Source: a virus. From it: a DNA stretch of 64,000 bases. The first letter of the stretch is position 1, and every line of letters starts with the position of its first letter. Shown piece by piece: positions 18,109 through 63,667 of the stretch. The notes under the pieces are model-generated. The model was not told the origin of the DNA. It saw only the letters and a list, made by a program, of their open reading frames with translations, and did no database searches. The translations under genes were made by a program, and so were the position numbers. The DNA is taken from IMG/VR virus record IMGVR_UViG_3300042566_000678, positions 64,001-128,000 of that record; one strand, given 5' to 3'.

Positions 18109-18789
18109 CTAAAGTGTAGGATTTGTATTATAGAAAGTATCTGTATCACTATCCCAACAAATTATCGGATTTTTTATCATATAATTTTCATCTAACAAAG
18201 ATGCGTTGATGGATGTGGTACTAAATGCTTCATCGTATAACTTACCACCATCCTCGTGAATGTGTCCAAAGACGTGTATTTTTGGTTTTACTATCTGAAC
18301 CTTTTGCTTTAACATTTCACAACCACAAGAGGTATGTGTGTATTTAGTAAAATCAAATCTGCCAAATGGTGGGCCGTGTGTAATAAGAATATCAGTATCA
18401 TCTGGTATTAGATTTACCTTTGTACCAATGATACCACCACGCGGTTTCATAAACGCCCAATTACCAAACAAAGGAGTCCAAGGAGAACCCCATATTTTGA
18501 ATCCATTCAACTCAATTCCACTATCGTTAAGATATATTAGGTCTTTATCTTTTAAGAGTTCCTGTGTAAGCTCTTGATGTTCTAATCCAAAGTCGTGATT
18601 ACCTGCTATAAAGATTTTATATTTGTATGGTAATCCACTAAACCACTCTACAAAATCCTTTAACTCATCCGGCTTACCTACATTACTAACATCACCAGCG
18701 TGAATGATACAGTCACCCTCTGGAAACTGATATAGTTTTTCCACCTCACGATGTAACCCGTGAGTATCTGATATAAATACAAATTCCAT
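18109..18789 (-). CDS. Metallophosphoesterase (calcineurin-like)
   Basis: ISDTHG, HAGD, IAGNHD, ILITHGPP, FGHIHE. Confidence 0.93.
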   Translation of the reverse strand: MEFVFISDTHGLHREVEKLYQFPEGDCIIHAGDVSNVGKPDELKDFVEWFSGLPYKYKIFIAGNHDFGLEHQELTQELLKDKDLIYLNDSGIELNGFKIWGSPWTPLFGNWAFMKPRGGIIGTKVNLIPDDTDILITHGPPFGRFDFTKYTHTSCGCEMLKQKVQIVKPKIHVFGHIHEDGGKLYDEAFSTTSINASLLDENYMIKNPIICWDSDTDTFYNTNPTL

Positions 18790-30337: not shown

Positions 30338-31593
30338 TTAATCGTCTAAACTTTCTAAATGGTTAAATTCTGCAATGGCTTCACCTAATTCATCATCACT
30401 CCACTCACTCAAAGAATCTTTTAAATCAGTATTTTCAGTTTCGTAAATAGATTCTGCCATTTCTTTAATACCATAATTCCAAGTAGATTCATCGTACCCC
30501 AAACCTACCGTAATTCCTTTAAAAATATCCAATAACTCGTGTATATCTGTATCTGAATTAGCTAGTTCAATACTAACCTTTCTACCCCATTGTTCTCCTG
30601 TAATCTTTGTAGGTTGTGCACCTTTACTTATATATGTCATATCTATTTTTTGTTTATTACATAGTTGCACACTTCAATACCAAAAAGCACAAAGCGAAAC
30701 CAACTATGAAAAGTATTAGGGGTGTTTTAATTTCCTTCATATCTATTTTGATTCAAAATCTAATTCTAATTGATTACTTCCCGTCGTTGGTTGTTGTGGT
30801 AATGTAGTTGTATAACTCCATGCAGAACCACTTGGATTCCACATCGTTGTTGTAGATGGATTATATGTAATAGAACCATATCCAGGCGTAGCTATAATAG
30901 TTCCACTACTACCGGTTGTTACTGTTAGCGTTGTGTCAGTTCCACAAGTTACCTTATATGGATTGTATGGGTCATATGGTTGGATAAATGGTAATGTTTG
31001 TATTGGTGCAGTATTTGGAACTCCAAATGGAAAAGATGGTGTTGATTCATCCTTAACCTCACCTAACTTATCTTTTAGGGTATCCCACTGCTTTGGTGTG
31101 GGTGAATAATCATTGCAGGCTTCTACAAAACCTTGCATCCAAACTACAAATTCTTTTGATGTCATAATCTTATTTATCTAAATATTCTTTTACTTTACTC
31201 CAATACATATAACCCCTATCAGCTCCCATATCACTCAATACCTCATCACATACCTTTTTGGCAAATAGAATCGCAGTAGGACGATATAACCTACTATAAT
31301 CACTCATCTTCGGTGGTTCTGTGTTCATAAAGAACTCAATCAATTGTTCCCCTTTTTCTTCTGGTGTTATCATCTTATTTATCTTCTACCCAAATGTGCA
31401 TATCACTTTGAATTGGATTGCCGGTATAGTCGGGGTTCAAAACGGATTTCCATTTCTGCCCGCATCTTCTACATTTCATTTTAGATGGCATCCACCCAAA
31501 GTTCGTTTCGTAACGATGTCCTAAAATCTTACATAACAATTTTTTCATTTCAAAGATTATCAAATATGAATTTAGCAAACTTTCTATGTCCAC
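30338..31593 (-). other. Small hypothetical CDSs (30338-30670, 30743-31165, 31170-31373, 31375-31593)
   Basis: Packed ORFs; 30743-31165 is Thr/Pro-rich; 31375-31593 has a CKILGH..CRRCG motif. Confidence 0.6.
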
Positions 31594-32134
31594 TTGAAAT
31601 TAAATGTATCCCATCGGACGAGTCACCACGAAAAATACTATCTTCCATAGGAATTACAACACATTCTTTTAAATCCGTTTGTATTCTCTTTTGTAATGAA
31701 ATGTATCTATTACGGCATTTAGTTTCAACTTCAGCTGAATAGATTGTGGTTTGTATCACTCTTTGTGGATTATACCCAACAATTACAATTGGTACTGCTC
31801 CCATCTTTTTTGCGATGTAAACCATACTTTGAATGTTTTTGATGGTTTCATCCTCTTTAACACTACTAAATGAGTCGTTGATACCACCATAAATTATTAC
31901 AGTATCGTATTCATACGAACCCAATGGATATTTTTCCATTTGATTTAACATCCATTTAGTTCGTTTACCAGCCTTTGAGATGTTATCATATTTAGCGTGT
32001 CTTAACCTTGAAAGTTGATGCTGCCATCCACCTCTATAAGCCGTTAGAGAATCACCAACGAAAAGAATTTTTTCTTCTTCTTCCGTAAATCCCATCAAAA
32101 ACCAACACAATAATGTTATAAGTCCTATTCTCAT
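31550..32134 (-). CDS. SGNH/GDSL hydrolase with signal peptide
   Basis: FVGDSLT, GGIND, DGIHL. Confidence 0.88.
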   Translation of the reverse strand: MRIGLITLLCWFLMGFTEEEEKILFVGDSLTAYRGGWQHQLSRLRHAKYDNISKAGKRTKWMLNQMEKYPLGSYEYDTVIIYGGINDSFSSVKEDETIKNIQSMVYIAKKMGAVPIVIVGYNPQRVIQTTIYSAEVETKCRNRYISLQKRIQTDLKECVVIPMEDSIFRGDSSDGIHLISSGHRKFAKFIFDNL

Positions 32135-32455: not shown

Positions 32456-32544
32456 GGATGGGGGAAACCGAAGATTGGGGGGAAGGCGCACTATCAAAAA
32501 TTTTTAGGTTCGACACCTTTTCTCCCCCCGCCCCCTCCGCGCTA
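32456..32544 (-). ncRNA. G-rich structured element, copy 2
   Basis: Homologous to 7058-7146; followed by a TATCTTTG promoter at ~32403-32434. Confidence 0.5.
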
Positions 32545-33210
32545 CTTAAAGGTGTAACCCGTTAGTTTTTGTATAACTGAAATATCTACTTGATTGTTTA
32601 GGAAACCATCTGGATTAGATAAATCATTATTAAATAGATATGCTAACCATTTGTTTGCCGATGGGATGTGAATTACCTTCCAACATTGTGTAGGAACTGA
32701 TACTAAACCAATCTTCTTTGCTTCTCCTACCGAACCACTCCACACTCTTACTCTATCATTTATTAATGCCCAATCTCTTGTTGCAGTTTCTAATGATTTC
32801 CAATCTCCTGCATTCAATCTATGAGTTTGTGCTACCATATTTGAAAAGTAGAAACACTCATCTTGTACCGCTTGAGTTTGACAAAGATTATCAGCTGCTG
32901 GCATTACGTGCCCTCTATCGTATCCACTCTTTACATAGTAGAATGCAATATTAGTTTCATCCACCAATTGTGGGTCTGGCTTAAAGTTATCCTTTCTTTT
33001 TAGTGGAGTTGGGCAACCCACCATTGCTTTGGTTGTTTCCCATTGTACTAATACAGGGTATCTTTTTGATTTACTGAATGTAGTTGTGTAATTTTGGTGT
33101 TTGATTGTTACTAAATCTTGTGCTACTAATCCACTAGCTACTAAAAGTACTACCGCTAATGTATTCAACCAATTCTTCCATGTTTGTTTGTTCATCGTAT
33201 TCATCTTCAT
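32542..33210 (-). CDS. Secreted DNA/RNA non-specific endonuclease (NucA/EndA-like)
   Basis: YDRGHVMPAAD, FSNMVAQ..LNAGDWKSLE, VPTQCWKVI; signal peptide; ends in TAG. Confidence 0.92.
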   Translation of the reverse strand: MKMNTMNKQTWKNWLNTLAVVLLVASGLVAQDLVTIKHQNYTTTFSKSKRYPVLVQWETTKAMVGCPTPLKRKDNFKPDPQLVDETNIAFYYVKSGYDRGHVMPAADNLCQTQAVQDECFYFSNMVAQTHRLNAGDWKSLETATRDWALINDRVRVWSGSVGEAKKIGLVSVPTQCWKVIHIPSANKWLAYLFNNDLSNPDGFLNNQVDISVIQKLTGYTFK

Positions 33211-53726: not shown

Positions 53727-53885
53727 ATGAAATCATTATTTACAAAAGCATTAGTTTATTCAATTGGAACAATTGTAGTTTCAGCTGCGGTATTTAGTAT
53801 TACTATGGCAGGGTTGAACCTTGCTGGTAAGACAGATGTTACAAAGCAAGTTATTGAAGAAATGGATGAAGTTTTAGGAATCTAA
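53727..53885 (+). CDS. Small single-TM protein, the only credible + strand gene
   Basis: MKSLFTKALVYSIGTIVVSAAVFSITMAGL..; TATTTATA at 53701; fills an otherwise empty gap. Confidence 0.65.
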   Translation: MKSLFTKALVYSIGTIVVSAAVFSITMAGLNLAGKTDVTKQVIEEMDEVLGI

Positions 53886-55462
53886 AGCATCAATCTAGAA
53901 CCTATTAAGAAATTACTTAATATCGGTGCTCCAGCAGCAGTTGATGTGTTTATCTTATAGTTGAAACTCAAACCAAACTTTTTGGATAATTTATAATCTA
54001 CGGATGTTCCTAATAGGAATCCAACATTAGTAGTATAACTAACCTCACCCTTTGCAGTATTTAAACTTGCACCAGGAGTCATTACAAACACCTGTGGTGA
54101 TAGAGTAAGTTTCTTTGATTTCTGATATGGTTTAGTCCAAAATACAACTGCTGAACTACTCATACTATAATCCTTACCGATAAATAAATTTACCAAACCT
54201 AAATTGTAACCATATACACCATACTTTGGATTTGGTATAATATGTGTAAATCCAGCCAATGCCATATAGTTACCAGATAGGTATGCAGTAGTTACTGAAT
54301 AGGAGTTCATAGAAGCCATCTTTCCATCCTTAAAGTTCATCTTTGTTACACCACCACTCAAAGCAAACTGCTTCAATGTAGACCATACCATAGAGTTTAA
54401 TGAATAGGTTACATTACCTGCTGCCGATGAACGTGATATACCATTAGTAAGTATAGCTGCGAACTCACCAGGTGAACCTTCTACTACGCTTAAATCAGAT
54501 GCTATTAATAGTGGATTTATTGGTGCTACTTTTTGTTTTTTCTCTTCTTTTTTTTCCTCTTTCTTTTCTTCCTTTTTTTCTTCTTTTTTAGATTCTTCTT
54601 TCTTTTCTTCCTTTTTAGATTCCGATTTAGATTCTTCTTTCTTTTCCTCACTCTTACTTTCAGATTTGCTTTCTGATTTGGATTCAGATTTGGATTCAGC
54701 TTTTGCTTCGGTTTTAGTTTCCGTTTTACTTTCAGATGATGAAGATGAACTATTGGATGATGAACTACTACTACCACCGGCCGATGGAGATGATGAACTA
54801 CTTGCTGGCGCTGGTGCGGATGATGCGGCAGGTGCTGGTGCTGAAGTAGTTGGTGTTGGTGGTGGAGGTGGAACTGCCGCCGATGCAGCTCCACTAGCTG
54901 CTCCACTCGCTGCCGAACTAGCCGCTCCACTTGCTGCCCCACTTGCCGCTGAACTTGCTGCTCCACTCGCTGCATTTGAGGCCGCTGAACTGGCTGCCGA
55001 TGAAGCTGCTGAACTTGCTGCACTACTTGCGGCAGAACTCGCTGCCGATGAAGCTGCTGAACTCGCTGCTTGGGATGCTGCACTACTTGCGGCTTGAGCT
55101 GCTGCCGCTGATGCGGCTTGTGTAGCTGCTTGGGCTGCTGCTTGCTGAACTGCCTGATTTACCGTTTGTTGAACTGTCTGTTGAACTACTATTGTTGCCG
55201 TTTGGCATCCTTGTGCGGAGTATGCAGTATAAACTGTCTGTAACCATATTCGCATTGCACCACTTTGAACTTCATCTGGTGAGAATACTCTCATCTGGTC
55301 ATAGAATGATACAAATGCACTTCCGTTGACATAAGTAGTAGTGGCAAGTTTTACCTCACCACTACACTTGTCAATAAATGTTTGTGTAAATGTTTGTCCT
55401 TTAGCTTTGGAAGCTAGACAAAAGATAAATAATACACTTAATAATATTCTTAAACTTTTCAA
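53882..55462 (-). CDS. Secreted protein with Ala/Ser-Pro-Glu/Lys repeat stalk and C-terminal beta-barrel
   Basis: Signal peptide AKG-Q; (AASS/AASG)n, PPPPP, (ESKS)n, (EEKK)n; amphipathic strands. Confidence 0.7.
   Translation of the reverse strand: MKSLRILLSVLFIFCLASKAKGQTFTQTFIDKCSGEVKLATTTYVNGSAFVSFYDQMRVFSPDEVQSGAMRIWLQTVYTAYSAQGCQTATIVVQQTVQQTVNQAVQQAAAQAATQAASAAAAQAASSAASQAASSAASSAASSAASSAASSAASSAASSAASNAASGAASSAASGAASGAASSAASGAASGAASAAVPPPPPTPTTSAPAPAASSAPAPASSSSSPSAGGSSSSSSNSSSSSSESKTETKTEAKAESKSESKSESKSESKSEEKKEESKSESKKEEKKEESKKEEKKEEKKEEKKEEKKQKVAPINPLLIASDLSVVEGSPGEFAAILTNGISRSSAAGNVTYSLNSMVWSTLKQFALSGGVTKMNFKDGKMASMNSYSVTTAYLSGNYMALAGFTHIIPNPKYGVYGYNLGLVNLFIGKDYSMSSSAVVFWTKPYQKSKKLTLSPQVFVMTPGASLNTAKGEVSYTTNVGFLLGTSVDYKLSKKFGLSFNYKINTSTAAGAPILSNFLIGSRLML
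54530..55150 (-). repeat. Coding low-complexity tandem repeats
   Basis: 12-nt periodic repeats encoding AASS/AASG, ESKS and EEKK. Confidence 0.85.
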
Positions 55463-55495: not shown

Positions 55496-56692
55496 TTAGT
55501 TTCCTTTTGTTGGAAATTTTGTCCAATCATTTGTCCACATTGGTTTATCCATTGTAGGTATTATCACATCCACTTCTTTATTACTCTTTGAAAGTGCAAG
55601 AGTTTTTAATTGGTCATTTGTTAGGATTGTAGTTGCTTTACTGATAAAGTTTAGTGTAGGGTTAAACGTTCCTACTGAATTGTTTTCAAATACTGAAATT
55701 CCATCTTTCACAAATTGTGCGGTTTCATTACTTTCCAAACTTAATCCACCTTTCATCCATCCCCAAATTACACTATTCTTCATTGTGAATTGTGTTGCTC
55801 TTCTAAATCTTAAACCTAAATTATGGTTTGATAATGCAGTAGATGTATTCGGTCCAATCAAAATCATATTATAAAGTTTTGGATGTGTGAATGGAGTTGC
55901 AGATGAACCTGTTCCATCATTATCACATTCTACACCATTTCCTGCATCACCATTATCTACGAATTGTGGGTCTCTCTTTGCTACACCATTTGTGATTGTT
56001 CCAGTGAATCCAAAATCAAAATCAAAATCATCATCTGCGGTTGCAAATGCATATAAGTTTTTAGGTGATACAGTCCCACCAAAGAACTCAAATGCATCAT
56101 CGTTAGCGTAGATAGTTTGTACATTCTCAATGATTGTACCACTACCAACTCCACCTAATGTTAGTGCGTTGATTTCAGAGTTTGGCATTGCTGCAACTCC
56201 TGCGTATTCTATTCTTACATATTTTAGAATACCACTATTATCCAAATCGTTTGTTCCACCAAACGCTCTACCAATACCACCTTCGATTGTTGGTTCGGAT
56301 GTTCTATTGGTTTTTGCTCTACCCAATATTACAATACCACCCCAATCGCCAGGTGTTCTTTCACCGACTGCTCTACCCGATGTGAATACAATTGGTTTTG
56401 CCGAAGTTCCTTCTGCTATAATTTGTGCTCCTCTTTCGATACACAATGCACCTTTCTCACTTATATCTGATTTGATTATTGTACCCGGCTGAATGATAAG
56501 TTTTGCACCATCGGTTACATATACATATCCTTTTAATATCCACTCTTTATCAGCGGTTAGGGTTGTAGTTGCTGAAATGTTTCCACTTAAAGTTGTAGTT
56601 GATGGTACATTTATTGGAGTAACTTCTCCACCCAATTCTTTTGAACATCCAAAGATTGTTAAACTTGCAAATAATACTAATAATTTTTTCAT
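55496..56692 (-). CDS. Beta-helix lipoprotein of the TonB-receptor-associated type
   Basis: Lipobox IFGC; PIVFTS, GDWGGIVILG, YVRIEYAG, EINALTLGGVGSGT, DDAFEFFGG, DDDFDFDFG. Confidence 0.8.
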   Translation of the reverse strand: MKKLLVLFASLTIFGCSKELGGEVTPINVPSTTTLSGNISATTTLTADKEWILKGYVYVTDGAKLIIQPGTIIKSDISEKGALCIERGAQIIAEGTSAKPIVFTSGRAVGERTPGDWGGIVILGRAKTNRTSEPTIEGGIGRAFGGTNDLDNSGILKYVRIEYAGVAAMPNSEINALTLGGVGSGTIIENVQTIYANDDAFEFFGGTVSPKNLYAFATADDDFDFDFGFTGTITNGVAKRDPQFVDNGDAGNGVECDNDGTGSSATPFTHPKLYNMILIGPNTSTALSNHNLGLRFRRATQFTMKNSVIWGWMKGGLSLESNETAQFVKDGISVFENNSVGTFNPTLNFISKATTILTNDQLKTLALSKSNKEVDVIIPTMDKPMWTNDWTKFPTKGN

Positions 56693-59172
56693 AGGTTGTA
56701 ATTTAGTGTTAGTGAAATTGTTGTTTCGTTGTTTGTTTTAATTAAGGTACGATTTGGTTTTTGGTAATACTTAAATGGTTGTCTGAATATATCCGATACT
56801 GCTAATTTAATTTCTCCGTTTTTAATCTTACGAAGTAGAACTATATCCACCACATCACGAGAGTTTTCGAATATATCAGGATACCCTTGGAAACCAACTG
56901 CTGATATTCTATCTCCTACTCTATTGTATGATATGTTAAATGTGTTATTATTTTTGTGTAAGTTTAATCCACCATTTACTACATAGTTTGATTGCCCTTG
57001 CAATTGTCTTTTTACTGAACCTATTTGGACTTCCGAATTGATGAACGATGTGTTTGAGTATAAATCTAACCACTCATTTAATTTCTTACGAAGTTCTATC
57101 TCTACCCCATAAACTAATGCTTCTTTTGGGTTTTTGTATGTTAGTAAAAGGTTTGATGGAACTGAACCATCTGCTACTACTTGCTCAATTGGATTGAAGA
57201 ACTTTTTACCAAAGAAACCAATTGATATATTTTCACCTGATTTAGGATACAACTCAAACTTTATATCTGAATTGAATATATCAGTCTTTTGTAAGTTTGG
57301 ATTTCCCAATAGTTGTGCGTTTCTTACAAAATCATAATAAGCAAAGTTTGCTACCTCTCTGAACTCCGGTCTTGCTAATGTTTTACTTACGGATAATCTA
57401 ACCTTTGTTTTTTCCGATGTTGAATATGTTGCGTTTAATGATGGTAGTAAATCAAAGTATTCTCTATCTACTGAAATCTTCTGTCCACCAAAATCAGATG
57501 TTTGTACTTTGAATAAATTGTACTCCGTTCTGAAACCAGTGTTTATCTTTAACTTATCAATTTCTTTTTCGTACATCACATATCCATTTGCCAAATCAAA
57601 ATCAGCAGTATATCTATCCGTATTGTTTGTGATTTCGTTTAACATATCCAATGCTTCGTATCTGAATATTCTTGCTTTGAAGTTTCTTAATTTCTTCAAG
57701 TAACCCACTCCTAAACGAATATCTCCTATGGATTTGTTTAATCCCCCATTGAATGAGTTTTCATCCATTACACTCCAAAAACGGTAGGTGTCTCTCCACG
57801 CTATTGTGTAAGGTGTTGTTGTGTATAAAGATGATATGAATGGAGTTACTCTATAATCGGGTTGGTCTCTCAACATAAGGTTGTATCCTACATTAAAATC
57901 CCAAGTCTTAAATTTACCTTCGAATTGTGTATTGATTACTGCTTTTTGAATTGAGTTTGATGATTTACTATCCACATACTGAACATTATCATAGTTCTCA
58001 CCAACTCTACTTAAAAACGATGATTCGGTTTGGTAGTTAGCAAGTGTTTTCCAACTATAACGATTCTCTCCCAAATACACTATGTTTAACAATCCGTTTA
58101 ATGATTGTACATTTGAATAGTTTTGGTCTTTGTATTTGTATGCTAATTCCGTTGATGATTGGTAATCAATTCTTTCGGTTGTGTTGGCTGAATATGTATT
58201 TCTTGCAGTTGAACTGAATAAGATGTTCCATTTGTTTTTCACCACACCAAATGATAAACTACCATTTAAGTTTGGGATAGATGTTGATGTTTCAGTTTGT
58301 GGTGAACCTATTAGTTTTGTGTATGCTCTTCTATCACCATTACTGCCAATTCGGAATGTATTTGTTGATGGAAATGTTTTTGGGAATTGTATAGGGTCTA
58401 CCAACCTAAAATCCTGTCCAGTTGATAGTGAACCCCAACTTCCTCCCAATGATATATTAAGGAAATCACCACTAACTTCCTTTGTTGTAATTTGTACCAA
58501 ACCTCCTGCGAAATCACCCGGTAAGTTTGCAGATGCTCCTTTGTTGATGATGATATTATCTATAAGTGATGTTGGGATAATATCAAATGAGAATGCTCTC
58601 CTATCGGGTTCGGTTGATGGTAGGATTGATTTGTTTAGTAGAGCCGAGTTGTATCTATCAGCTAAACCTCTAACTAAAACAAACTTATCGTTTTGGATTG
58701 TTACTCCACTAACTCGTTTAAGTGCATCACCAACAGTTCTATCTGGTGTTTTCTTTATTGATTCAATTGATAAACCATCTGCTACAATGTAAGATGCTTT
58801 AAGTGTGTTGATAAGTGCAGATGCGGTTTCTTTCTTTGCAACTTGCTTTACCACAACTTCTTGCAACAATTTAGTATCCTCTTCTAATTGAATATCTAAA
58901 TTAGTTGTTGTATCAATTGTAATATCTTTGTTGTATTCTTTATATCCAACAAAAGATGCTTTTACTGAATAGTTTCCTTTTGCTATATTGGTAAATTGAT
59001 ATTTGGATTCAATATCAGATGTTGTTCCTGCTTTCTTATTTGTTGTATTATTGGTAAGCCAAATTGTTACACCTATAAGTTCTTCTTTGTTTGATTTTAC
59101 TTTACCTGAAAGGTTTTGAGAGAAAATTTGATGTGAAAGTAACAGAATTGATAATAAAAATAGTTTCCTCAT
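56689..59172 (-). CDS. TonB-dependent receptor
   Basis: Signal peptide, CarboxypepD-like N-domain, LQEVVV, plug DALKRVSGVTI..VRGLADRYN, LLPSLN, RPEFRE, GNPNL. Confidence 0.93.
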   Translation of the reverse strand: MRKLFLLSILLLSHQIFSQNLSGKVKSNKEELIGVTIWLTNNTTNKKAGTTSDIESKYQFTNIAKGNYSVKASFVGYKEYNKDITIDTTTNLDIQLEEDTKLLQEVVVKQVAKKETASALINTLKASYIVADGLSIESIKKTPDRTVGDALKRVSGVTIQNDKFVLVRGLADRYNSALLNKSILPSTEPDRRAFSFDIIPTSLIDNIIINKGASANLPGDFAGGLVQITTKEVSGDFLNISLGGSWGSLSTGQDFRLVDPIQFPKTFPSTNTFRIGSNGDRRAYTKLIGSPQTETSTSIPNLNGSLSFGVVKNKWNILFSSTARNTYSANTTERIDYQSSTELAYKYKDQNYSNVQSLNGLLNIVYLGENRYSWKTLANYQTESSFLSRVGENYDNVQYVDSKSSNSIQKAVINTQFEGKFKTWDFNVGYNLMLRDQPDYRVTPFISSLYTTTPYTIAWRDTYRFWSVMDENSFNGGLNKSIGDIRLGVGYLKKLRNFKARIFRYEALDMLNEITNNTDRYTADFDLANGYVMYEKEIDKLKINTGFRTEYNLFKVQTSDFGGQKISVDREYFDLLPSLNATYSTSEKTKVRLSVSKTLARPEFREVANFAYYDFVRNAQLLGNPNLQKTDIFNSDIKFELYPKSGENISIGFFGKKFFNPIEQVVADGSVPSNLLLTYKNPKEALVYGVEIELRKKLNEWLDLYSNTSFINSEVQIGSVKRQLQGQSNYVVNGGLNLHKNNNTFNISYNRVGDRISAVGFQGYPDIFENSRDVVDIVLLRKIKNGEIKLAVSDIFRQPFKYYQKPNRTLIKTNNETTISLTLNYNL

Positions 59173-59223
59173 TATTGTTTTTTTAGTTCAACAATAAGTA
59201 GGAAACTATCTTATTAAAATACC

Positions 59224-59248
59224 ATTTCGTATGTTACGAAATTGTTAA
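59224..59248 (-). promoter_or_regulatory. Pho-box-like direct repeat overlapping an inverted repeat
   Basis: TTAACA-N5-GTAACA (11-bp period); ATTTCGTA-N3-TACGAAAT. Confidence 0.5.
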
Positions 59249-59254
59249 ATTATA

Positions 59255-60392: not shown

Positions 60393-61133
60393 TTATTTAT
60401 TTACCCAATTTTCCAATGCTTCTATATACCCACCACTCATATGGTCTTTTATATTTTTACCTGAAAATAGTGCTTTTATGTATAACCAAAATGATTTTAG
60501 TGATTTATCATTTTTCAATCTATTACCATTATTATCTAATCTTACTTGATGATTGACGTGATAAAATCTAATGTATGGTGTATGTGTTACTAAATCGTTG
60601 TTATGTACTATTCGTAAAGTATCTATATCACTTTTATCATAGTTTTCTTTAAACACATTATTACCAACTCTCGGGCTACCAATAGTTGTTGCACTAACAT
60701 TATAGTGAGGAAAGTGTTTCTTTATTGAGTATGCATATAATGTTGCTACTGCACCACCTAAACTATGCCCACTAACTACAATATCAGTAGTTTCACCTTG
60801 TAGGTTTTCTAATGCAGTATCAATAGCATCGTAAGTATCACCTATTACTGATTCCCAACAATATTTAAATCCAATATGAACCTTCTCACCATCTTCAATG
60901 AATGGTACTTTATCAATTGAAGCATCGTTTTGGAAATCCTTCTTTGATTCACTACCTCTCCAAACTACATATATAGTTTTATTTCTCGTAGCCACAAATC
61001 CTTGTGTATCTGATTTTTTATTCTCAATCCACTTTACTAACGATAATCCCAATTCATCCCAATTTATCTGGTCTTTGTTTGAATACGCTAATACTGCTAA
61101 TTTTGAGTTATATAGTGCTTCCTTTCTTGTCAT
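60393..61133 (-). CDS. Lipase class 3
   Basis: VVWRGS, VHIGF, GHSLGG, GSPRVGN, DLVTHTP, DHM. Confidence 0.93.
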   Translation of the reverse strand: MTRKEALYNSKLAVLAYSNKDQINWDELGLSLVKWIENKKSDTQGFVATRNKTIYVVWRGSESKKDFQNDASIDKVPFIEDGEKVHIGFKYCWESVIGDTYDAIDTALENLQGETTDIVVSGHSLGGAVATLYAYSIKKHFPHYNVSATTIGSPRVGNNVFKENYDKSDIDTLRIVHNNDLVTHTPYIRFYHVNHQVRLDNNGNRLKNDKSLKSFWLYIKALFSGKNIKDHMSGGYIEALENWVNK

Positions 61134-62954: not shown

Positions 62955-63326
62955 TTATAATTTATTAAAATCTGCTATTCCTAATGCGTTTCCTTCCATA
63001 TCAAATAAAGCAATTCTATATGCAGAAGATGGTAAAGCGTTTGCGTATATTTTCAATACGTTATTTCCAGCTTTTATATCAACCTCTTCTTTTGATACTG
63101 ATTTATTTTCTATGTTTAATATCTTTACTATATATTTTCCAGCAGTTTCTGCTTTTACGTTCATAGAAACCTCATCTTTTACGAATGGTGTTTCTACTCT
63201 AATACCCATATTTCCAACTATTTGTAATTTTTCGTTTACTACGGTTGGAGTTGGTACGAATAATTCTTCATTTTGGCAAGATGCTAACAATCCAATTGCC
63301 AATATTGATGCTACTATTTTTTTCAT
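62955..63326 (-). CDS. Lipoprotein with Ig-like (T9SS-CTD/FlgD-like) domain
   Basis: Lipobox LASC; AGKYIVKI..AGNNVL..ALPSSAYRI. Confidence 0.55.
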   Translation of the reverse strand: MKKIVASILAIGLLASCQNEELFVPTPTVVNEKLQIVGNMGIRVETPFVKDEVSMNVKAETAGKYIVKILNIENKSVSKEEVDIKAGNNVLKIYANALPSSAYRIALFDMEGNALGIADFNKL

Positions 63327-63667
63327 TTTATTTTTATTATTGTTTTTCCTAATTCTTTTTTAGCAACATCTTCCAATAACAGATATAAATATCTACTTTG
63401 TAACGATTTCGTATAAATCTTTCTTACATTTTCTCCACTTTGCCCAATAAACTTATCTCTACCTACTACTTGTCCACTTTCTTTGTCTATTAAAGTTAAT
63501 GTATAAGTTCCTTTTTCTGGTAAATCAAAGTGTAGAGATTCTCCATTTGTAACACTACTTTCACTTACACTAAATATATCATCAATTGATAATCCTTCCG
63601 GCATTACCAATTCAGGTCCACTACACCCAACCAATAGTATCAAAAATAAATATAGTATCCTTTTCAT
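63323..63667 (-). CDS. Lipoprotein with Ig-like domain
   Basis: Lipobox LVGC; GTYTLTLID. Confidence 0.55.
   Translation of the reverse strand: MKRILYLFLILLVGCSGPELVMPEGLSIDDIFSVSESSVTNGESLHFDLPEKGTYTLTLIDKESGQVVGRDKFIGQSGENVRKIYTKSLQSRYLYLLLEDVAKKELGKTIIKIK

Follow-up and report, generated by a model that had tools for sequence, protein, structure and literature searches.

A two-gene cassette encoding a TonB-dependent transporter and a beta-helix lipoprotein was analysed in a 64,000-nucleotide stretch of viral DNA (the window), which covers bases 64001-128000 of the 148,235-bp IMG/VR virus record IMGVR_UViG_3300042566_000678. The cassette is probably a host-derived uptake unit for the outer membrane, belonging to the phosphate-starvation regulon of Bacteroidota; it would be retained by a large clade of freshwater tailed phages as a phosphorus-scavenging helper under the control of the host regulator PhoB. 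A preliminary description, made from the letters of the window, had reported an intact 827-aa receptor, its ATGA overlap with a 398-aa lipoprotein gene and the sequence TTAACA-N5-GTAACA about 60 nt upstream, and all of these are real. Both genes are intact and overlap at 56689-56692. On the minus strand the repeat reads TTAACA (59248-59243), the spacer ATTTC (59242-59238) and GTAACA (59237-59232), with 59 nt between it and the transporter ATG (59172).

Conservation of the upstream repeat

A single repeat site within this genome proves nothing. The two-hexamer pattern was observed five times in the 148-kb phage genome against an expectation of 3.0, and a looser form eight times against 7.7; the signal lies in conservation. 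An exact TAAYA dimer at the 11-bp period was present upstream of the transporter in 22 of 46 distinct viral loci; among the remaining genes of these loci, 3 of 609 upstream regions had it (Fisher 3e-25, a value that is not a strict probability since the loci are related). When up to one mismatch was allowed, 38 of the 46 viral upstream regions were positive, mostly at -72 to -87 from the ATG. Alignment of 35 viral upstream regions showed a conserved block, TTAAyAATTTsnTAAyA, between diverged flanks, and the viral repeat is often followed by a weaker third half-site.

Studies of the cellular homologs revealed the repeat there as well. At least two TAAYA cores at the 11-bp period were found upstream of the transporter in 38 of 62 cellular cases and at least three in 14, against 29 of 714 other upstream regions in the cellular loci (Fisher 6e-30). 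Many of these 29 control matches precede genes for Porin_O_P, PlcP-like Metallophos, a PhoB-like regulator or the cassette-type lipoprotein itself. The cellular arrays contain two to six repeats. Locus L008 carries six repeats before the transporter, with one further pair in the interval from PhoU_div to Porin_O_P, and in Sediminibacterium sp. C3 the six-repeat array before the transporter is the only array of at least three repeats in 3.2 Mb. Genome-wide searches for three repeats gave few hits, mainly at the cassette's own locus (G001, G002), and the other targets were mixed (a beta-lactamase-fold protein, a choice-of-anchor I protein and a sigma-54 activator). Hexamers resembling TTAACA every 11 bp are presumably similar to the Bacillus subtilis PhoP box and the cyanobacterial SphR box. 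The preliminary description had suggested a Pho box at this site, and the suggestion is strengthened by the conservation of the repeat in both phages and cells and by its presence before other Pho-type genes.

The same description had named an overlapping hairpin as a possible refutation. A hairpin, ATTTCGT/ACGAAAT, does overlap the repeat, with a folding energy of -6.8 kcal/mol and a z of -0.56; 39 of 200 shuffled sequences fold equally well, and the hairpin is missing from most of the related viral loci. The repeat as a by-product of a hairpin or terminator was rejected, because the hairpin is weak and unconserved.

Downstream of the repeat, the sequence TTATTGNNGAAC is present once in the 148-kb phage genome. 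The second conserved block, TAnTTATTG-nn-GAACTAA (Table 1), is absent from the upstream regions of cellular transporters; it appears to belong to the phage cassette and to travel with it, and its predicted function is that of a promoter. Elements of the form TAnnTTnn or TTTAGAG, which resemble TATTTTAA, follow the repeat in many viral loci. In phage loci with three repeats (L003) the second block begins 20 nt past the last repeat, and the spacing from the array to TAATTTTG (the -7 box) in the cellular locus L249 is likewise 20 nt. Because this spacing is equal in the two, the ancestral promoter geometry seems to have been retained. In the window the third repeat has decayed, and the TAnTTATTG box and TATTTTAA are both candidates for the promoter box.

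The gene pair and its cellular relatives

The transporter has the plug and the C-terminal 22-strand beta-barrel of its superfamily according to Pfam, AlphaFold2 (AF2) and Foldseek. Its Pfam matches are CarbopepD_reg_2, Plug (E 1.3e-8) and OMP_b-brl_3 (E 1.3e-24), and TIGR01782 scored 183 bits, which is under the cut-off of that model. In the AF2 model the N-terminal domain is confident and the barrel has a predicted local distance difference test score (pLDDT) of 80-90. Foldseek matched the model to 218 solved chains of TonB-dependent transporters at E<=0.001, the best at 4.5e-23. A predicted TonB box, LQEVVVK (approximately residues 102-108), lies between the N-terminal extension and the plug and in an alignment falls on the xEVV(V/I)x motifs of 11 cellular and 3 phage homologs. 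The phage transporter is shorter than the cellular ones (827 aa in the window vs approximately 935 aa), with about 85 missing residues distributed over nine short barrel segments that are likely loops. Phage transporters fall into two size classes of approximately 750 and 826 aa.

The N-terminal lipoprotein signal of the partner ends in FGC, which is followed by SKE. Precomputed matches to PF28492 exist for near-identical proteins and for the gene of L002, and this family is carried by all 30 nearest Atlas clusters (by 100% of the members in the three listed). A phmmer search with the lipoprotein returned 6774 representative clusters at E<=0.001. Its AF2 model is a right-handed beta-helix (pLDDT 81), for which VIA-align gave a Z of approximately 23 to pectate-lyase-fold proteins at 8-14% identity, a generic fold match. 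Nothing was found among Protein Data Bank (PDB) sequences by phmmer, and Foldseek gave no match of the model to the PDB below 1e-3. The phage lipoprotein is about 60 residues below the cellular median (398 vs about 460 aa). The partner has a beta-helix instead of a SusD domain (PF07980/PF14322), and a SusCD or PusCD pair was rejected since the partner is not of the SusD family. A transporter gene is adjacent in 63 of 81 viral lipoprotein loci, the remaining loci being cut, and in almost all uncut viral loci a transporter of 747-833 aa ends 4 nt past the lipoprotein start.

Cellular relatives were compared in 82 loci, 80 from species-representative genomes and two from metagenome contigs. The lipoprotein gene is preceded by a TonB-dependent transporter of the cellular length in 70 of them. 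At least one phosphate-type neighbour, i.e., PhoBR-like, PHO4, PhoU_div, Porin_O_P (OprP-like), PlcP-like or glycosyltransferase, is present in 27 of the 82 loci, and the majority of the closest Chitinophagales relatives are among these. The commonest further neighbours are a HisKA/HATPase histidine kinase and an OmpR-type response regulator (14 loci each), an OlsF-like acyltransferase (12), the PHO4 phosphate transporter (11), PhoU_div (9), a PlcP-like metallophosphoesterase (8), Porin_O_P (5) and a glycosyltransferase (4). The adjacent kinase matched PnpS, WalK and PhoR in NCBIfam, all under curated cut-offs. Enzymes of the OlsF-like type are linked to phosphorus-free ornithine lipids.

The phosphate-starvation response of such a pair has been studied in Flavobacterium johnsoniae. 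Lidbury et al. have described Fjoh_0545, a TonB-dependent transporter with PF07715, PF13715 and PF14905, and Fjoh_0546, the hypothetical lipoprotein FII with a pectin-lyase fold, from the phoBR cluster as PUSIV (Lidbury et al., 2021, PMC8115612). The two, which are abundant exoproteome proteins, were induced by log2 8.0 and 9.9, respectively, on depletion of inorganic phosphate (Pi). Tight repression under nitrogen and iron limitation was seen for the uncharacterised loci of this organism that low Pi induces, FII included (PMC8115612). Like the phage pair, Fjoh_0545-0546 has the same transporter Pfam architecture followed by a pectin-lyase-fold lipoprotein, and it adjoins phoBR and an OprP-like porin, as do the Chitinophagales loci L090, L111 and L008. 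The phage pair differs in being trimmed in both proteins to the lengths given above, in its ATGA overlap, in having two good repeats and a cassette-specific second block, and in residing in a virus without phoBR. Architecture and context suggest that the two pairs are orthologous. The resemblance to phosphate-starvation receptor/lipoprotein operons, to which the preliminary description had pointed, is thus borne out by the 27 phosphate-type cellular loci and by the Pi-induced pair of F. johnsoniae.

In one class, which behaves as Bacteroidia, a match to the lipoprotein family was found in 133 of 151 sampled genomes, a tally that includes one unpublished genome (G103). The contig L101 comes from a record labelled as a Sphingomonadales metagenome-assembled genome (MAG); this genome behaves as one of Bacteroidia, since 133 of 151 class-mates carry the family, and its locus looks Chitinophagales-like. 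The NCBI label of L101 is probably wrong, or the contig was misbinned.

A second cellular context without a nearby phoBR was observed in L007, L097, L123, L129, L135, L139, L163 and L165. The gene order in this context is RNase Y, Mpo1-like, transporter, lipoprotein, OlsF-like acyltransferase (divergent) and HHH_3. All eight loci but L097 have the Pho-type repeat before the transporter, and the OlsF-like gene fits phosphorus-free lipid synthesis.

Evolution and genomic setting of the phage cassette

Among the phage copies, the ratio of nonsynonymous to synonymous substitution rates (dN/dS) was 0.17 for the transporter and 0.15 for the lipoprotein, and both genes are under purifying selection. 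Both protein trees place the phage copies in a single clade, which is nested on a long stem among the Bacteroidota homologs; its nearest cellular neighbours are homologs from Pho-type loci of Chitinophagales and Sphingobacteriales, e.g., L109. Comparison of the window with L044 gave a dN of 0.139 for the lipoprotein and 0.042 for the transporter, and comparison with L003 gave 0.079 and 0.283, respectively. Because the divergence of the two genes is discordant and the transporters fall into two size classes, recombination inside the cassette is suggested. The cassette appears to be a host-derived gene pair that selection has maintained in the phage.

The closest cellular copy, L089, was found in a Spirosomataceae MAG from a lake. 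It lies between genes for secreted purple-acid-phosphatase-like and alkaline-phosphatase-superfamily proteins in a genuine bacterial locus, and its promoter region differs from the phage one. For the genus of this MAG, a freshwater one within Spirosomataceae (that of G160; loci L248-L253 and L218-L247), 61 genomes were sampled, of which 10 carry a phage-type lipoprotein that is 74-77% identical to that of the window, 40 carry a native-type lipoprotein that is 46-50% identical to it, and none carries both. Between L250 and L253 the flanking genes are 76-94% identical, the lipoproteins 48% and the transporters 34%, and both loci keep the native upstream region with a four-repeat array and a TAnnTTTG box. 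In both trees, which are quick or FastTree builds without an approximately unbiased (AU) test, the phage-type copies of the genus form one clade inside the phage diversity, nearest to the group of the window. One phage-to-bacterium transfer probably replaced the coding sequences in place, the direction being probable and not proven. A fuller account, which has about an even chance of being correct, is a two-way flow in which phages took the Pho pair from Bacteroidota and streamlined and recombined it (shorter loops, a shorter lipoprotein, overlapping genes and a promoter block of its own), after which the phage version would have replaced the native pair behind the native Pho array in part of the Spirosomataceae genus.

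The record is that of a real tailed phage, and the cassette lies inside a bona fide phage genome. Genes for the portal, large terminase (TerL), baseplate wedge, endolysin and DNA polymerase are all on the same record, the completeness of which is 80% by CheckV estimate. Nearly all genes of the window are on the minus strand, the G+C content is approximately 33% throughout, and thymidylate synthase, an exonuclease and glycosyltransferases are also encoded. The phage is a large freshwater phage of Bacteroidota. An independent 230-kb contig reproduces its gene order with identical synteny. Relatives of the lipoprotein are encoded on 145 IMG/VR contigs (E<=1e-3), of which 80 were kept, with lipoproteins 74-94% identical. 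Most of the locus is contained in lake water, freshwater and estuary metagenome runs from several studies. A blastn search of the locus against the INPHARED phage collection gave no match, and the 148 kb of the phage contain no Trans_reg_C (OmpR-type regulator), PhoH or TonB_C gene.

The cassette was found in at least two different phage settings, that of the window and another in which it follows a transfer-messenger RNA (tmRNA) gene. The second setting is that of the related viral-type contigs L003-L006, where the cassette is directly preceded, at L003:6983-7405, by a complete tmRNA gene (Rfam RF00023, 98.4 bits) and its terminator. The tmRNA of L003 was detected by Rfam and was not called by ARAGORN.

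The features of the window are collected in Table 1. The 526-aa secreted protein had no match in Pfam or NCBIfam; its C-terminal domain (aa 315-526) gave tblastn matches in 32 viral loci and in no cellular locus, and the protein may be a candidate outer-membrane anchor. The upstream run of envelope-directed genes also includes a 266-aa Ala/Gly-rich protein and a 239-aa secreted protein, the latter present in 18 viral loci, and the Pho-type repeat precedes none of the genes of this run. The preliminary description had pointed to a secreted nuclease, a lipase and a phosphoesterase elsewhere in the window as fitting a scavenging role. These genes are present in the window; the proposed link to the cassette was not supported, as no TAAYA dimer lies upstream of the Metallophos, GDSL lipase or Endonuclease_NS gene. 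Pho control of the nuclease, lipases and phosphoesterase of the window was rejected because the motif is not upstream of any of them.

Table 1. Positions of the cassette, its upstream elements and other features in the window
Feature	Position	Strand	Description
Metallophos phosphoesterase gene	18109-18789	-	
GDSL lipase gene	31550-32134	-	
Endonuclease_NS gene	32542-33210	-	
526-aa secreted protein	53882-55462	-	Immediately follows the cassette; long low-complexity stretches rich in Ser/Ala and in Glu/Lys; conserved C-terminal domain
Beta_helix_4 (PF28492) lipoprotein, 398 aa	55496..56692	-	Right-handed parallel beta-helix of the FII/ElpS-like kind
TonB-dependent transporter, 827 aa	56689..59172	-	Signal peptide, CarboxypepD_reg-like N-terminal domain, TonB-box-like LQEVVVK, plug, beta-barrel
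Second conserved block TAnTTATTG-nn-GAACTAA	59183..59200	-	Candidate -7-type promoter box and leader, kept across viral loci
TATTTTAA	59214..59221	-	Putative alternative -7-like box, predicted from the sequence; 10 nt after the repeat
Pho-box-like direct repeat TTAACA-ATTTC-GTAACA	59232..59248	-	Two half-sites, 11-bp period
Run of envelope-directed phage genes	59255-63667	-	Upstream of the cassette
Class-3 lipase	60393-61133	-	Within the upstream run
Small lipoprotein	62955-63326	-	Within the upstream run
Small lipoprotein	63323-63667	-	Within the upstream run

Interpretation and comparison with known systems

In a phosphate-starved infected cell, the phosphorylated PhoB-type regulator of the host would bind the TAAYA repeats at 59232-59248 and activate a weak Bacteroidota-type promoter just downstream of them. 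A single bicistronic mRNA would then give the transporter and, by ATGA-coupled translation, the lipoprotein. Both proteins would be handled by the Sec, Bam and lipoprotein export machineries of the host, and the host TonB-ExbBD would energise the transporter. By analogy with other transporter-lipoprotein pairs of Bacteroidota, the beta-helix lipoprotein may be located together with the barrel at the cell surface, where it would capture or process a phosphorus-containing ligand that the barrel imports in support of phage DNA synthesis. An organophosphate, the ligand favoured in the preliminary description, was not supported.

Several observations weigh against this interpretation. The repeat is a PhoB site by prediction from comparative genomics, and a Bacteroidota Pho-box consensus was not found in the literature searched. 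The PBP_like_2 (pstS-like) genes of five genomes have upstream sequences that lie inside operons and offer no promoter-like region. The copy in the window has two good half-sites only, vs up to six repeats in the cellular arrays. No phosphate-type neighbour lies inside approximately 8 kb in 55 of the 82 cellular loci, and the best NCBIfam matches of the adjacent regulator, two PhoB models, are below the curated (equivalog) cut-offs. The plug of the transporter was modelled poorly by AF2 (pLDDT 28-56). In addition, ElpS of Caulobacter raises extracellular phosphatase activity and is itself not a phosphatase (PMC2996285).

Other explanations of the cassette were weighed against the same data. 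TonB-dependent transporters are common phage receptors, and the trimmed transporter with its lid could displace or mask the host version, a possible phage receptor, and so block later phages, with any uptake being incidental. The loss of approximately 85 transporter residues from nine short barrel segments, likely loops, and the several other secreted or lipoproteins encoded around the cassette would fit such a role, and receptor remodelling or superinfection exclusion has been put forward in a 2026 preprint on the outer-membrane proteins of huge phages (bioRxiv 10.64898/2026.10.24.761521). It is nevertheless an unlikely explanation, for it accounts neither for the fixed-place conservation of the Pho-type repeat nor for purifying selection on the partner lipoprotein, and it leaves unexplained why a bacterial genus swapped the pair of its Pho locus for the phage type and kept the native Pho array.

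Quite improbable is the uptake of a nutrient other than phosphorus, such as iron, a glycan or a vitamin, with the repeat serving a different OmpR-family regulator. The nearest solved folds of the transporter are siderophore, haem and B12 transporters, but these matches have 10-13% identity and reflect the general fold. The lipoprotein fold is pectate-lyase-like, the neighbouring regulators score under the PhoB equivalog cut-offs, and the receptor of Mar_Mega_1 has been interpreted as serving carbohydrate uptake (PMC9723777). The cellular neighbours, however, are PHO4, PhoU_div, Porin_O_P, PlcP-like and phosphatase-like genes and not iron or glycan genes, and the F. johnsoniae pair is Pi-responsive and repressed under nitrogen and iron limitation (PMC8115612). 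That the cassette is not phage-borne, and is instead the product of a chimeric assembly or host DNA on a contig that was misclassified, is extremely improbable. The genes are of cellular origin and one close relative is in a bacterial MAG (L089), but hallmark phage genes share the contig with the cassette at uniform G+C and strand, the independent 230-kb contig has identical synteny, the cassette or its close relatives are on the 145 IMG/VR contigs, in runs of several lake and estuary studies and in at least two phage contexts, and the L089 locus is genuinely cellular and differs in its promoter region. A host chimera, which the preliminary description had listed among its possible refutations, was discarded on the hallmark genes, the independent contig and the IMG/VR contigs.

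The uptake unit under host Pho control has counterparts in several known systems. Zeng and Chisholm are said to have reported in 2012 that cyanophage pstS and phoA lie behind a host Pho box and are switched on by the host PhoBR in phosphorus-starved cells. These are likewise auxiliary phosphorus-acquisition genes of phages, but they encode a periplasmic binding protein and a phosphatase in phages of cyanobacteria, whereas the present cassette encodes an energised outer-membrane transporter and a surface lipoprotein in lake phages of Bacteroidota, with a regulation that is predicted. Le Blastier et al. have reported that ElpS (CC0170) of Caulobacter crescentus is a lipoprotein made on phosphate starvation and encoded beside the TonB-dependent receptor CC0171 (Le Blastier et al., 2010, PMC2996285). 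ElpS is similar to the phage lipoprotein in being a lipoprotein of approximately 50 kDa beside a TonB-dependent receptor, and homologs were reported in Bacteroides and Shewanella (PMC2996285); unlike the phage protein, it is released via the type II secretion system. A relation between the two is suggested by the 31-36% identity of the FI-FIII lipoproteins to ElpS (PMC8115612), FII being the nearest published counterpart of the phage lipoprotein. Complexes of a TonB-dependent transporter and a surface lipoprotein in Bacteroidota include SusCD, BtuB-BtuG (PMC10404256) and an iron-piracy lipoprotein/transporter system of gut Bacteroides (PMC13142918). They share with the phage pair a TonB-dependent barrel and a dedicated surface lipoprotein encoded adjacent to it and provide a working model; the phage partner is a beta-helix vs SusD or a beta-propeller in the known complexes, and a complex of the phage proteins is proposed by analogy.

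The preliminary description had regarded a whole outer-membrane transporter as unusual phage cargo. This view does not agree with published reports of TonB-dependent receptors in huge phages, which include Mar_Mega_1 (PMC9723777) as well as Lak phages and others (bioRxiv 10.64898/2026.10.24.761521). The preprint also places phosphate-acquisition genes near large barrels in aquatic phages. These reports propose carbohydrate uptake or superinfection exclusion, and the portions available do not identify an ElpS/FII-type partner, a Pho-type repeat or a back-transfer. Likewise, the literature searched contained no paper identifying the FII/ElpS-type pair in phages, the conserved Pho-type repeat or the back-transfer. 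Overall, TonB receptors in large phages were already known, and host-Pho control of phage genes is reportedly known from cyanophages.

Phosphorus is commonly limiting in lakes, where Bacteroidota rank as major degraders. A widespread phage clade, represented by the 145 IMG/VR contigs and thousands of near-identical metagenome proteins, may switch on an energised outer-membrane importer only when its host is starved of phosphate. If true, viral infection would change the capture of phosphorus in lake waters, and the range of host-Pho-controlled phage genes would be extended from cyanophage pstS and phoA to a further phylum and to cargo of a new class. The comparison of upstream regions yields the definition of a candidate Bacteroidota Pho box. 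The phage pair may represent a natural compact version of the uncharacterised ElpS/FII-type uptake system that would be useful for finding its ligand. If the two-way flow is correct, phages would both exploit the phosphate sensor of their hosts and supply new alleles for host nutrient uptake.

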